DNA of 64,000 nt from a virus, in the IMG/VR virus record IMGVR_UViG_3300024999_000040, positions 64,001 through 128,000 of that record. One strand, written 5' to 3'. Below the pieces are notes generated by a model that was not told the origin of the DNA, searched no databases, and saw only the letters and a list, made by a program, of their open reading frames with translations. Shown in pieces: positions 2,399 to 8,324 of the stretch (position 1 is the stretch's first letter; the number at the start of each line of letters is the position of its first letter). The translations under genes were made by a program, and so were the position numbers.

Positions 2399-2427
2399 AT
2401 TATATCAATTTAGTTAAGGTTTGTCAA
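2399..2427 (-). promoter_or_regulatory. sigmaA-type promoter with conserved spacer box
   Basis: TTGACA-17-TATAAT; spacer contains TTAACTAAATTGA. Confidence 0.8.
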
Positions 2428-2433
2428 CATAAT

Positions 2434-2461
2434 ATTTTCTACTGCCCATCACAGTAAAAAT
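2434..2461 (-). repeat. 3' hairpin H1 (mRNA loop UGAUGGG)
   Basis: plus strand TACTG-CCCATCA-CAGTA; similar to 3043-3074. Confidence 0.65.
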
Positions 2462-2468
2462 TTAATGT

Positions 2469-2975
2469 TTATATTTGCTTTTTACAGCATATTGATTTTA
2501 ATATATTATTCTGAAACGTAAAATCATTAGTAAGATCAATAAACTCATCTGCGGTTAATCCTATTAACTCATTTTCATTTTTAACCCTACATTCAATAAT
2601 AACACCGTTATAAAGTATAAATGTAGTTTTATGATTCCTAGACTCTGTAAGAAGTTTAATATCGTTTTTATTTATTACCATATGCATAAGATTTGTAAAA
2701 GTAATAAGTTCTGAAACATTACCAACAACAAGAATCTTATAATTATGTATTTTAGGAATAATTTTTTCTTTAAATACCATCTGTCTTTGCAAATCTTGAA
2801 TCATATGAAGTATTGTTTCTCTTGTCTTAGTTGTATTACTTCCAATCTCCACTTCATCATATTCTTCTTGAAGTTTTAGAAGTGTTTTAAGATGAAATTC
2901 CATACTGTAAGGTATATCGTATTTTTCTTTCCATTTAGTGAACTCTCTCTGAACGCTCTCACTCAAATTATTCAT
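2469..2975 (-). CDS. hypothetical protein bracketed by hairpins H2/H1
   Basis: 168-aa ORF, RBS AAAGGAG. Confidence 0.7.
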   Translation of the reverse strand: MNNLSESVQREFTKWKEKYDIPYSMEFHLKTLLKLQEEYDEVEIGSNTTKTRETILHMIQDLQRQMVFKEKIIPKIHNYKILVVGNVSELITFTNLMHMVINKNDIKLLTESRNHKTTFILYNGVIIECRVKNENELIGLTADEFIDLTNDFTFQNNILKSICCKKQI

Positions 2976-3003
2976 AATAATCTCCTTTAATTTTTGTATT
3001 TTA

Positions 3004-3033
3004 TATTAAATACCAGATGGGTTAGTATTAATA
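3004..3033 (-). repeat. 5' hairpin H2 (mRNA loop ACCCAUC)
   Basis: plus strand AATACCA-GATGGGT-TAGTATT; similar to 3821-3850. Confidence 0.65.
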
Positions 3034-3042
3034 CCTTAGTTA

Positions 3043-3074
3043 AATAGCCTACTGCCCACTAACAGTAGACTATT
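3043..3074 (-). repeat. 3' hairpin H3 (mRNA loop UUAGUGGG)
   Basis: 12-bp stem AATAGCCTACTG/CAGTAGACTATT, plus-strand loop CCCACTAA. Confidence 0.7.
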
Positions 3075-3082
3075 ATATTTAC

Positions 3083-3772
3083 TTATCTTATATCCACAGA
3101 CAAATTCTTATCAGAACAATCCAAATATACTACCTTTGTCATTGAAGGAACAACAATATATTCTTTTGGAATGCTCAATCTCATATTATTAATCATATTG
3201 TCTTGCATTTCTTTATTTATGGCTGGTTTATTATCTTTATCTTTTGGAATTTCATGAACTATAATACCTTTTATTTTATCGAGATTGTTTTGTTGCCATT
3301 CTCTTATCTCTTCAACTTTCGATTCGATTTTTAATTTCTCTGCCTTTTTACTTGCTTCTTCAATTAAATAATTTGCTCTATTTTGTTCTTTATTTTCCTT
3401 ATAGATTTGTTTAACACAATTTAATTTAGATAACAATTTTTCCTTATTATTTTCTTGATCATCAATATATTCAGTGACATAAGATACATTGTAGTAAATA
3501 TAACCATCTGTACCTACTGTAACTTTTTGAATTGTTGTATAAACTCCCTTTTCACTTAAAAATATTTCATCTTTTTCTTTTAATTGATGAGGTAGTTCAT
3601 ATTCACCAATCTTAACTCTTTCTATTGTTTCTGAATCTTCTTCTAATTTTGGTTCACATAAAGAATTTTTTAAAGACCATTCATCTGCATTTTCTAGTTT
3701 GTAGAACCTTCTCACTTTTCTTCCCATTAAAATACTATGTACTTTATTAGTTTTGCTTTTTATTGTTGACAT
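3083..3772 (-). CDS. hypothetical protein bracketed by hairpins H4/H3
   Basis: 229-aa ORF, RBS GAAAGGTAGG. Confidence 0.7.
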   Translation of the reverse strand: MSTIKSKTNKVHSILMGRKVRRFYKLENADEWSLKNSLCEPKLEEDSETIERVKIGEYELPHQLKEKDEIFLSEKGVYTTIQKVTVGTDGYIYYNVSYVTEYIDDQENNKEKLLSKLNCVKQIYKENKEQNRANYLIEEASKKAEKLKIESKVEEIREWQQNNLDKIKGIIVHEIPKDKDNKPAINKEMQDNMINNMRLSIPKEYIVVPSMTKVVYLDCSDKNLSVDIR

Positions 3773-3820
3773 ATTGCCAACCTACCTTTCTGTGCTATGC
3801 ACATTTAAATGTTTTATTTA

Positions 3821-3850
3821 TATTAAATACCTAGTGGGTGGTATTAAATA
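3821..3850 (-). repeat. 5' hairpin H4 (mRNA loop ACCCACUA)
   Basis: plus strand AATACC-TAGTGGGT-GGTATT. Confidence 0.65.
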
Positions 3851-4116
3851 TCTTGATTATAGTATTTCTCTATATCCTTTACCATTATAAGAACCTATAA
3901 TGCCTCTAAGTTCTAATTCTTCAAGCATTATATTAGCCCAAGTAGTTCCATTTTTAAATTTTTTTTTGAATTAAAGTCCCATTGAAATTTTGTGTATCTT
4001 TACAACTATTTGCTAACTCGATAACTTTTATAACATCTTCTTCTGTTAGTATATTATAGTTATTTAACATGACAAACCTCCTTTCTTTAACCCAATAAAA
4101 TTCTCTTTTTAATGCC

Positions 4117-4424: not shown

Positions 4425-4619
4425 TCTCATTATTTCTTTAGAAAAATCATACAAATCATCTTCCTCGATTTCCATATGAGGCATTTCACCGTTACACTTG
4501 ACACAATACAAATGTTTAATGTGATGTTTCTCACGTTTTTTATTAAGTTTTCTAGGGATAGGGAATATGTTCCCACATCCCAAGCATTGTAGATTTTGAA
4601 TATAAATGTTTTTCTTCAT
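4419..4619 (-). CDS. zinc-ribbon protein
   Basis: CLGC...IPR...HIKHLYCVKC. Confidence 0.65.
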   Translation of the reverse strand: MKKNIYIQNLQCLGCGNIFPIPRKLNKKREKHHIKHLYCVKCNGEMPHMEIEEDDLYDFSKEIMRQ

Positions 4620-5191
4620 AATAATTGTTGAATTTCTCTTTGTCTATTGCCAGCAAAATTCCAATCAATTCTCTTTGGTGGATTTAGAAAATTCTTATAA
4701 GCTAATGCCATTTGTTTTGCAGCTATATCAAAAGGTACTCTACCAGTTGCAGTACCTAATCCACAACATGCAACAGTTTGAATATTTCTATGTTTACTTG
4801 TAGCAATTAGCATAGCTTTCATTGCTTGATAAACATTGTCTGTGTTTCTTATATCCATAGGGACTCTCATTGTAGGAGTATGTGCTAAGTATGGATGCAT
4901 GTCATGATAAGTTTGAATAATAAATGATGTTCCTACTGGCTGTTCTCCAGCATAGTTTTCAATAATATATTCTTGTACTCTTTCCATTAATTGAGTACCA
5001 AAATATCTTGTAATGGCTAAATCTATACCACCATCCATTAATCCAAAAGAATTTGCAGGACTAACTATACAATCATAATCAGGCAAATTTTCTAAAGATG
5101 AATGTAGTACAGTTACATTAGTCAAATCTTTAAAGGCTATTTCAAATTCTTTGCATAGGTCTTTATTTATATCAAATAATAGTAAATTCAT
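4616..5191 (-). CDS. macro domain protein (ADP-ribose binding/hydrolase)
   Basis: IVSPANSFGLMDGGID and GLGTATG motifs. Confidence 0.9.
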   Translation of the reverse strand: MNLLLFDINKDLCKEFEIAFKDLTNVTVLHSSLENLPDYDCIVSPANSFGLMDGGIDLAITRYFGTQLMERVQEYIIENYAGEQPVGTSFIIQTYHDMHPYLAHTPTMRVPMDIRNTDNVYQAMKAMLIATSKHRNIQTVACCGLGTATGRVPFDIAAKQMALAYKNFLNPPKRIDWNFAGNRQREIQQLL

Positions 5192-7861: not shown

Positions 7862-8324
7862 AATTACTTGAGCCTATACCACCTATTCTATCACTATTAG
7901 ATTCACTGTTGTCTGCTACAAGATAATTCATAAAAACACCTTGACAAATTCTTTCACCTACTTCGATAGTTTTAATGAAAATAGAATTATTAAATAAGCA
8001 AACACCTATATTTCCATCGTTGTCCTTATTTTGATAATAATCTCCATCTATCACAGCAACAGAATTAGCTAGTGTAAGATACTTTTTAATACCAATTGAA
8101 CTGCGTATATAAAGCATTAATACTTCATTTTCACACATATATGCTTTAATATCAGTCCATATTACTTGTTTTTCTCCTGGTTGAATATCAATGGTAATAG
8201 GACTATAGAAATCTATACCAGCAGAATGTTTTGTTGCTCTTGTTGGTAGAATTATTTCTTTGTCTGGATGCTTTCTATATTGATCTGAAACTATTTCAAA
8301 TCCTCTCGTTTTTACTATATTCAC
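7860..8324 (-). CDS. dut: trimeric dUTPase
   Basis: SAGIDF, RSS, VIDGDY, ERICQG and RIGGIGSS motifs. Confidence 0.93.
   Translation of the reverse strand: MNIVKTRGFEIVSDQYRKHPDKEIILPTRATKHSAGIDFYSPITIDIQPGEKQVIWTDIKAYMCENEVLMLYIRSSIGIKKYLTLANSVAVIDGDYYQNKDNDGNIGVCLFNNSIFIKTIEVGERICQGVFMNYLVADNSESNSDRIGGIGSSN

Follow-up and report, generated by a model that had tools for sequence, protein, structure and literature searches.

Paired hairpins with complementary, covarying loops frame unrelated genes in metagenomic phage contigs

Two adjacent phage genes lie between hairpins with complementary loops

The stretch of DNA analyzed here (hereafter the window) comprises 64,000 nucleotides, bases 64,001–128,000 of the 148,716-bp IMG/VR virus record IMGVR_UViG_3300024999_000040, which derives from an uncultured groundwater phage, has a G+C content of 28.9% and is 76% complete according to the CheckV estimate. 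Within this window, two consecutive minus-strand genes are each preceded by a hairpin with a C-rich loop and followed by a hairpin with a G-rich loop. We refer to each such arrangement as a framed unit (U1 and U2), to its two hairpins as the frame and to the enclosed gene as the cargo; all hairpins are read in the messenger RNA (mRNA) sense. In this direction, the features are as follows.

3820-3851, minus strand: U1 5' hairpin, with lower stem AUAUU/AAUAU, a U.U mismatch and upper stem AAUACC/GGUAUU
3832-3839, minus strand: C-rich loop of the U1 5' hairpin, ACCCACUA
3804-3819, minus strand: AU-rich run 3' of the U1 5' hairpin, AAUAAAACAUUUAAA
3791-3803, minus strand: small hairpin UGUGC-AUA-GCACA, immediately 5' of the Shine-Dalgarno sequence; specific to cargo family F1, outside the frame and absent from U2
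3083-3772, minus strand: U1 cargo gene, 229 aa, family F1
3043-3074, minus strand: U1 3' hairpin, stem AAUAGUCUACUG/CAGUAGGCUAUU with one U.G pair, no U-tract on the sense strand
3055-3062, minus strand: G-rich loop of the U1 3' hairpin, UUAGUGGG
8 nt, minus strand: spacer between the U1 3' hairpin and the U2 5' hairpin
3003-3034, minus strand: U2 5' hairpin, stem of the U1 type with one U.G pair, loop ACCCAUC at 3016-3022
Minus strand, 3' of the U2 5' hairpin: AU-rich run, as in U1
2469-2975, minus strand: U2 cargo gene, 168 aa, family F2
2436-2460, minus strand: U2 3' hairpin, stem UUUUUACUG/CAGUAGAAA with one U.G pair, loop UGAUGGG at 2445-2451
2399-2427, minus strand: sigma-A-type promoter of the next gene, a perfect TTGACA-17-TATAAT with an upstream TG, 8 nt past the U2 3' hairpin

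The two loops of each unit are complementary to one another, CCCACUA matching UAGUGGG over 7 bp in U1 and CCCAUC matching GAUGGG over 6 bp in U2, which confirms what an earlier sequence-only reading of the window had reported for both units; its impression that the two proteins show no similarity also held, as the U1 and U2 proteins are unrelated on comparison. Compared with shuffled sequences, folding is far stronger for three of the four hairpins, namely the U1 5' hairpin (minimum free energy (MFE) -8.1 kcal/mol, z -3.3), the U1 3' hairpin (MFE -17.2, z -4.8) and the U2 3' hairpin (MFE -9.6, z -5.4). The core of the U1 3' stem, CUACUG/CAGUAG, can be extended to 12 bp, including one G.U pair. 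The pattern TACTG-N5-12-CAGTA occurs three times in the window, compared with an expectation of 0.27, and no further hairpins of these kinds beyond the four were found in the whole 148,716-bp record. The promoter at 2399-2427, which drives the gene at 1965-2348, marks the end of the framed unit.

Framed units occur in other phage contigs

Homologues of the U1 and U2 proteins were taken from a collection of 5.8 billion proteins and the DNA surrounding them was read; a third cargo family (F3) was reached through a pattern scan of IMG/VR. This resulted in a total of 16 non-identical units, all from metagenomic phage contigs, with three unrelated cargo families. Their loops (5' loop / 3' loop) are listed below.

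U1 (F1): ACCCACUA / UUAGUGGG
L016 (F1): ACCCACUA / AUAGUGGG
L134 (F1): UCCCCACU / UAGUGGGG
L015 (F1): CGCCCACU / AAGUGGG
L010 (F1): CCCCGUC / AGACGGG
L103 (F1): UCCCGUC / AGACGGG
L136 (F1): CCCGUC / AGACGGG
L014 (F1): UCCCUAUC / AUAAGAUAGGGA
L138 (F1): UCCCUAUC / UAAGAUAGGG
L135 (F1): ACCCACC / UGGUGGG
U2 (F2): ACCCAUC / UGAUGGG
L021 (F2): UACCCAUC / AGAUGGG
L022 (F2): UCCCAUC / ..GAUGGG..
L017 (F2): ACCCACC / AAGUGGG
L033 (F3): ACCCACC / AGGUGGG
L003 (F3): ACCUACC / UGGUGGG

In all 16 units, the cognate loops are complementary over 5–8 bases. There are about six loop addresses (CCCACU(A), CCCCACU, CCCAUC, CCCGUC, CCCUAUC and CCCACC), each consisting of CCC and 2–5 variable bases. Since five of these addresses occur within F1 alone, and CCCACC is found with all three cargo families, the loops do not follow the protein. 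The sequence-only reading had named loop covariation in homologous pairs elsewhere as the means of checking its proposal, and such pairs indeed keep their complementarity while loops and stems change, which supports a selected, gene-specific 5'-3' contact.

Scans of other kinds added little to this set. Neither a blastn comparison with a phage collection for close relatives nor an IMG/VR scan with the U1 protein alone gave a match, and a scan of genome contigs detected no relative of F2 and a single distant relative of F1, from Clostridium rectalis, which lacks the frame. The 5'-element pattern matched 77 IMG/VR stretches, among which the F3 relatives were the only real ones, the others being chance or coding matches; 3'-stem patterns revealed no units beyond the known contigs. 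A de-novo scan for pairs of C-loops and G-loops over the collected loci returned 539 pairs in the wrong gene order versus 579 in the right one, and this count was discarded, since loop pairs alone do not reveal a unit unless further context is used.

Contig alignment at 80% likeness displayed the joints 2463>3002, 2463>3007 and 3073>3812 in two runs, resembling frames without a gene; in contigs from a sister sample, the 3' hairpin of a unit is thus connected with its own AU-rich run or 5' hairpin. We did not make use of these gene-skipping joints, as the shorter side measures only 23–25 nt; they could represent empty frames, other units, or chimeric or artefactual alignments. In a comparison of L003, which is an 86.5-kb relative, with L039, a 116-aa gene (L003:8940-9340) is present only in L003, and the difference begins at the 3' edge of the 3' hairpin, so that the edge of the frame coincides with a module junction.

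Loop complementarity exceeds that of permuted partners

For the statistical analyses, hairpins were chosen by folding energy only, as the most stable one within an interval of fixed length before the ribosome-binding site and after the stop codon; this choice returned the same hairpins as those seen by eye. Summed over the 16 cognate pairs, the longest Watson-Crick runs amount to 98 bases, compared with 65.3 ± 4.9 for permuted partners, and the loop-loop duplex energy to -156.7 kcal/mol, compared with -107.0 ± 8.0 kcal/mol; neither value was reached in any of 300,000 permutations. An earlier permutation with 12 units had given 2/200,000 (Watson-Crick run) and 1/200,000 (energy). Furthermore, the address switches are multi-base and two-sided. 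The loops follow neither protein nor chance, and we consider it almost certain that their complementarity is under selection.

Anatomy of the 5' and 3' elements

The two elements constitute separate families (alignments A3 and A5). In the 5' element, the lower stem (UAUUAA/UUAAUA) is conserved in sequence; it is followed by a mismatch or bulge and then by an upper stem of 5–6 bp that varies, about ten distinct versions occurring among the units. The loop of 6–9 nt starts with (A/U)CCC, and the hairpin is followed by an AU-rich run. Because differences in loop length shift the MAFFT rows by one, the 5' stems were compared as a list. The sequence-only reading had described the 5' hairpin by its AATACC-type upper stem, which is present, as part of a longer, imperfect stem with a conserved lower portion; its view that stems are conserved by type applies within the source genome, but the stems of the relatives are quite different.

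The 3' element, located 8–25 nt after the stop codon and carrying a G-rich loop of 7–8 nt, forms a well-conserved family with the consensus AUAUCURCYG-NNNNGGG-CRGYAGAUAU. Its stems include CUACUG, CUGCUG, CUGCCG, UUACUUC, UUAUUCCA and a 13-bp AU stem. In the alignment of this element, 83% of the cells are paired, compared with 74.5% in shuffles (0/500) and far lower values in slid controls, and double-sided changes are seen in 7 of the 11 stem pairs.

In 14 of the 16 units, pairing leaves no base free on the 3' side of either loop. On the 5' side, 0–2 bases remain unpaired in short loops; L014 and L138, whose 3' loops are long, have 3–4 there, and these two loops, together with the long 3' loop of L022, are the exceptions to the constant register. 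The frame has the features of a kissing complex, i.e., apical loops of stable hairpins, at least five contiguous complementary bases and a constant register; in solved kissing complexes, the loop-loop helix stacks on the stems in such a register.

A covariance model of the 3' element (R1) was run over ~0.9 Mb of collected sequence and five related virus records, giving 13 distinct strong matches, each with a cognate 5' hairpin; two of these copies, the only ones there, lie in the source record and one in a complete 172.9-kb relative. One weak match (26.8 bits; L133, G005:C1:9646-9688, minus strand), having the loop AGAUAGG, a stem with two G.U pairs and no matching 5' hairpin, is perhaps a decayed unit. 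Among 151 genomes sampled from the class to which C. rectalis belongs, R1 found no match.

Wobble pairs, polarity, promoters and terminators

Within the 3' stems, all five one-sided changes are to G.U or U.G pairs. Wobbles within stems comprise seven G.U versus one A.C, to which L136 adds two G.U pairs. Loops behave similarly: the C>U change in the 5' loop of L003 faces a G, leaving a G.U pair, and the loop helix of L135 is lengthened by a G.U pair. The polarity of the frame is constant, the C-loop preceding the start codon and the G-loop following the stop codon in 16 of 16 units.

Consensus promoters were predicted 5' of the 5' hairpin in L010 and L136 (12/12) and in L003 (11/12); the predicted starts precede the hairpin by 21 nt (L010), 43 nt (L136) and ~119 nt (L003). 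Others follow the 3' hairpin directly; these are located in U2 (12/12) and, with 11/12, in L021 and L022. No unit has a promoter of at least 10/12 over the 5' hairpin or between it and the start codon. A U-tract after the 3' hairpin is lacking on the sense strand of every unit, the tails being A-rich or mixed, and no terminator was called on that strand; the 3' hairpins are therefore not ordinary intrinsic terminators. Wobbles, polarity, predicted promoter placement and missing U-tracts point to the single-stranded sense strand, most simply RNA, as the form in which the frame acts.

In L003, the leader between promoter and 5' hairpin (8140-8270) also holds a six-codon mini-open reading frame, MIVTDT, with its own ribosome-binding site.

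Cargo proteins and neighboring genes

For the U1 and U2 proteins, no Pfam or PHROG match was found. Their AlphaFold models are confident (predicted local distance difference test (pLDDT) values of 85 and 79), and a Foldseek comparison of both models with the PDB gave no significant match. Across the units, the cargos measure 164–231 aa. In the U2 family, many metagenomic proteins share 65–80% identity over the first ~70 aa (window 2809-2975 in U2) and differ in their C-terminal halves; look-alike contigs reach a depth of ~8000 in the source metagenome, and short open reading frames (ORFs) with only this N-terminal domain exist (L108-L110).

All F1 genes have a small hairpin, GUGC-AUA-GCAC, directly before the Shine-Dalgarno sequence (window 3791-3803; L010, L014-L016, L103, L134-L138). 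The distant C. rectalis homologue (L127), in which the kissing frame is missing, keeps it as UGGC-AUA-GCCA, with a compensatory change. This hairpin is a candidate translational operator or 5' stabilizer specific to F1.

The small gene just 5' of U1 (3857-4070, minus strand) is interrupted by a frameshift at nine consecutive A (~3963-3971), possibly through sequencing error or slippage, and its stop lies ~11 nt before the U1 5' hairpin. When read through, the protein ends ...ANIMLEELELRGIIGSYNGKGYREIL, by eye similar to a winged-helix or FtsK-gamma domain. A macro-domain protein is encoded at 4616-5191 (minus strand; Pfam PF01661, E 2.7e-17; PHROG 2613), four genes upstream of U1. In other contigs, Cas5d-like and Cas6-like genes are located 1.3 kb downstream of the F1 unit of L014 (L014:4971-6660), on a contig of 25 kb, and an IS605 OrfB/TnpB gene adjoins the F1 unit of L015 (L015:19-1287), no link to the frame being shown in either case. 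A long inverted repeat of ~125 nt (L003:9545-9669), situated ~600 nt downstream in L003, gave only a chance-level match to a microRNA precursor in Rfam.

Discussion

Proposed role of the frame

With some reserve, we lean toward the view that the frame is a portable mRNA element whose ends kiss and thereby close each cistron. The contact would take place in RNA and within one molecule, and would stabilize or insulate the message; stabilization as the specific effect is less certain than the closure itself. According to this model, a 5' hairpin with a C-rich loop, an AU-rich run, a ribosome-binding site with its gene, and a 3' hairpin with a G-rich loop would follow one another in the transcript, where the two loops would pair to form a kissing helix of 5–8 bp, made up of a constant CCC:GGG nucleus and 2–5 address pairs. 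This helix would bring the ends of the cistron together into a closed, nuclease-resistant segment, in which RNase J or RNase Y would be kept from entering at the 5' end and 3' exonucleases from attacking the 3' end. An accessory gene could thus be expressed from a defined, insulated mRNA, either with its own promoter or within a longer transcript and, where neighboring units differ in their address, each 5' hairpin would prefer its own 3' partner. The U1 and U2 frames of the window would delimit two stable segments of a longer transcript, while L010, L136 and L003 resemble self-contained modules of promoter, frame and gene. A Firmicute host is suggested by sigma-A-type promoters, by the strength of the Shine-Dalgarno sequences and by the homologue in Clostridium, and the protective effect in a host of the RNase Y/J type is proposed by analogy with the hbs mRNA, in which pairing of the 5' untranslated region (UTR) with the 3' UTR modulates RNase Y cleavage.

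Several observations weigh against this reading. The U2 5' hairpin (MFE -5.9, z -0.6) is no more stable than shuffled sequences, and in the MFE fold of the U1 3' hairpin two U.G pairs close part of the loop. The shortest contacts measure 5 bp (L017) and 6 bp including a wobble (L003). Neither U1 nor U2 has a strong promoter immediately upstream in the window, so that their 5' hairpins would be transcribed only with upstream read-through. The AU-rich run contains TATAAA or TATAAT in most units and, were it a promoter, the 5' hairpin would be excluded from the mRNA; we rejected the run as a sigma-A -10 or T4-late-type promoter, as L135 and L136 have no such box and no promoter of at least 10/12 is found there. 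Homologues without a frame exist (L104 and L105, with 41–43% identity, the F2 homologue L018, the ORFs L108-L110 and L127 of C. rectalis, with 31%), hence the cargo does not need the frame. Owing to shared descent, the units represent about six address classes and at least five (about 5–6) independent switches, not 16, and among units of the same address class cognate and non-cognate partners are indistinguishable. Finally, none of the listed sequencing runs that contain this DNA is an RNA run; the four are DNA runs from one groundwater-metagenome study.

Alternative explanations

The covariation, register, polarity and wobble data would be the same if the RNA contact lowered expression, whether through feedback by a trans-acting small RNA (sRNA) derived from the 3' UTR or through a site for a double-strand-specific RNase (retroregulation, as in lambda sib). 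Stem, loop-loop helix and stem would stack to ~25–30 bp, which is the size range of RNase III substrates, and a C-rich loop with a G-rich partner, the usual seed style of Firmicutes sRNAs, would suit an sRNA seed. However, the Shine-Dalgarno sequence lies outside the pairing, leaving no direct translational block visible, and neither a promoter nor a processing signal is seen that would yield a separate 3' RNA. The sequences do not separate a contact in cis from one in trans; we regard a contact that lowers expression as unlikely. A different view would take the hairpins as DNA, with each stem-loop being the core site of a recombinase, consisting of inverted arms and a 7–8-bp spacer shared in inverted orientation, at which an enzyme of the tyrosine-recombinase type could invert the gene. 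The arm-spacer-arm geometry fits; sites of the lox and FRT type require spacer identity for strand exchange, and this requirement would explain the covariation. Yet the 5' and 3' arms are unrelated and there are about ten 5' upper stems, although a recombinase needs conserved arms; compensatory stem changes with G.U intermediates suit a structure over a protein site; and in L003, C>U makes the two spacers differ but leaves the RNA pair intact. The parental arrangement is found in all 10 F1 units and in all others, with no hybrid or inverted form, the aligned contigs contain no strand-changing joint (a weak test, being made on contigs only), and no dedicated recombinase lies beside the units. 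Recombination of this kind is very unlikely, in our view.

Similarly, we assign a very low probability to the alternative offered in the sequence-only reading, that the hairpins are the single-stranded DNA (ssDNA) ends of a mobilizable cassette, like integron attC sites or IS200/IS605. A cassette would account for one frame around three unrelated cargos, for the stem types that U1 and U2 share in one genome, for the neighbor-gene indel exactly at the 3' hairpin in L003 versus L039 and, given that a G.T wobble is tolerated in ssDNA too, for part of the wobble data; the OrfB/TnpB gene beside L015 would also fit. It fits the strand-specific G.U pairs, the constant polarity and the promoters outside the frame less well, and that gene is the sole exception to the absence of an associated HUH/Y1 transposase or integron integrase. 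Each genome has one or two units and no arrays, the outer edges show neither a target-site duplication nor a conserved cleavage motif by eye, and the left- and right-end hairpins of IS200/IS605 are alike, whereas the two hairpins of the frame are not. Furthermore, we know of no mechanism that requires complementarity between the loops of two separate ssDNA hairpins. Less probable again is an explanation in which the elements are ordinary terminator/promoter junctions of the PeSL kind known from T4-type phages, acting as handles for recombination in module shuffling, with a loop complementarity that is incidental or inherited. The elements do lie where accessory genes join, most 5' hairpins are followed by TATAAA or TATAAT, which resemble a -10 box, and stem types common to different cargos suggest exchange; but complementarity kept through at least five address switches (p < 1/300,000) is not incidental, the 3' hairpins lack a U-tract, L135 and L136 lack the -10-like hexamer, no promoter of at least 10/12 lies over or after the 5' hairpins, and PeSLs are direct repeats of one element while the frame comprises two different ones. 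Of all these explanations, we find it hardest to credit that the hairpins are convergent copies of one protein-bound hairpin, such as an AbiF-type antitoxin RNA, with loops that are complementary merely through inversion. It is true that the opposite strand of the 3' hairpin has a C-rich loop like the 5' loop. However, only the loops correspond, the stems being of two different conserved types, so that the 3' element is not an inverted copy. Addresses that differ in one genome and are shared by unrelated cargos fit no cargo-specific binding protein, and the cargos, which have no match in Pfam, PHROG or the PDB (the PADLOC library was not searched), are not Abi/HEPN proteins.

Relation to known systems

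Pairing between the ends of an mRNA is known from single genes. In the hbs mRNA of Bacillus subtilis, a 14-bp pairing of the 5' and 3' UTRs modulates RNase Y cleavage (Braun, Durand and Condon 2017, PMC5737220), and in the hok mRNA of the plasmid R1 hok/sok system, the tac/fbi fold-back closes the full-length message (PMC9841398). The frame is similar to hbs in that, presumably also in a Firmicute, the leader and 3' UTR of one mRNA would pair and the ends are proposed to control decay; with hok it has in common a 5'-3' end pairing that would close the mRNA and is backed by covariation in a gene family. As in both, complementary segments lie around the same gene and are kept by covariation. There are differences as well. 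Whereas hbs has a single, linear pairing in one housekeeping gene, the frame has two hairpins with a loop contact of 5–8 bp and a variable address, and is portable over unrelated phage genes. In hok, tac/fbi is a stem of linear ends, and the toxin mRNA remains untranslated until 3' processing and acts with an antisense RNA; in contrast, the cargos of the frame measure 164–231 aa, the Shine-Dalgarno sequence is free and no antisense partner is seen.

The loops themselves resemble those of kissing complexes, such as ColE1 RNA I/RNA II, the HIV-1 dimerization initiation site (DIS), and the kissing loops between the 5' UTR and the 3' cap-independent translation element (3'-CITE) of plant RNA viruses, in having 6–9 nt, GC-rich pairing and, on the 5' side, bases that stay unpaired. 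In the plant RNA viruses, moreover, the 5' end of a message is joined to its 3' end by the contact, with covariation from virus to virus. However, these systems either act between two RNAs, in replication control or dimerization, or serve eukaryotic cap-independent translation, and to our knowledge none of them frames single bacterial or phage cistrons.

With regard to genomic position, the closest parallel is provided by the PeSLs, small composite terminator/promoter motifs that flank variable genes in T4-type phages (PMC4122927, PMC2839356). Both are short, conserved stem-loop motifs that flank accessory genes and probably aid module exchange. PeSLs, however, are direct repeats of one promoter-plus-stem-loop element without gene-specific complementarity, while the two differing elements of the frame are neither consensus promoters nor terminators and have loops matched pairwise. 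The sequence-only reading had stated that no such phage element was known, in agreement with which full-text literature searches found no description of one in phages, and Rfam gave no match to the hairpins, its one chance-level hit (RT-6, 16.7 bits versus a gathering score of 46.7) lying outside them. While mRNA end pairing is known from single genes, we know of no modular, address-coded two-hairpin frame.

Significance

Communication between mRNA ends plays a central part in the translation of eukaryotes and plant viruses; in bacteria, we know of mRNA end pairing only from a few single-gene cases (hok, hbs, icaR). If our favored reading of mRNA ends that kiss is true, the frame would represent such pairing in modular form for the first time, as two small hairpins, transferable together, that can close any cistron and take their specificity from a few loop bases. 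It is conceivable, although we would stop short of calling it probable, that a clade of large AT-rich phages has adopted this as an address-coded closed-loop cassette, in which any accessory gene is non-covalently circularized and orthogonal addresses prevent cross-pairing between neighbors. Loop covariation between distant intergenic hairpins is a signal that can be mined from metagenomes. Should the RNA contact be real, the natural orthogonal loop pairs, ready for swaps, would provide a test system for mRNA closure in bacteria, and the frame would offer a compact part for the synthetic control of mRNA stability. For the phages themselves, it would constitute a route to giving acquired accessory genes a defined, insulated and stable message.

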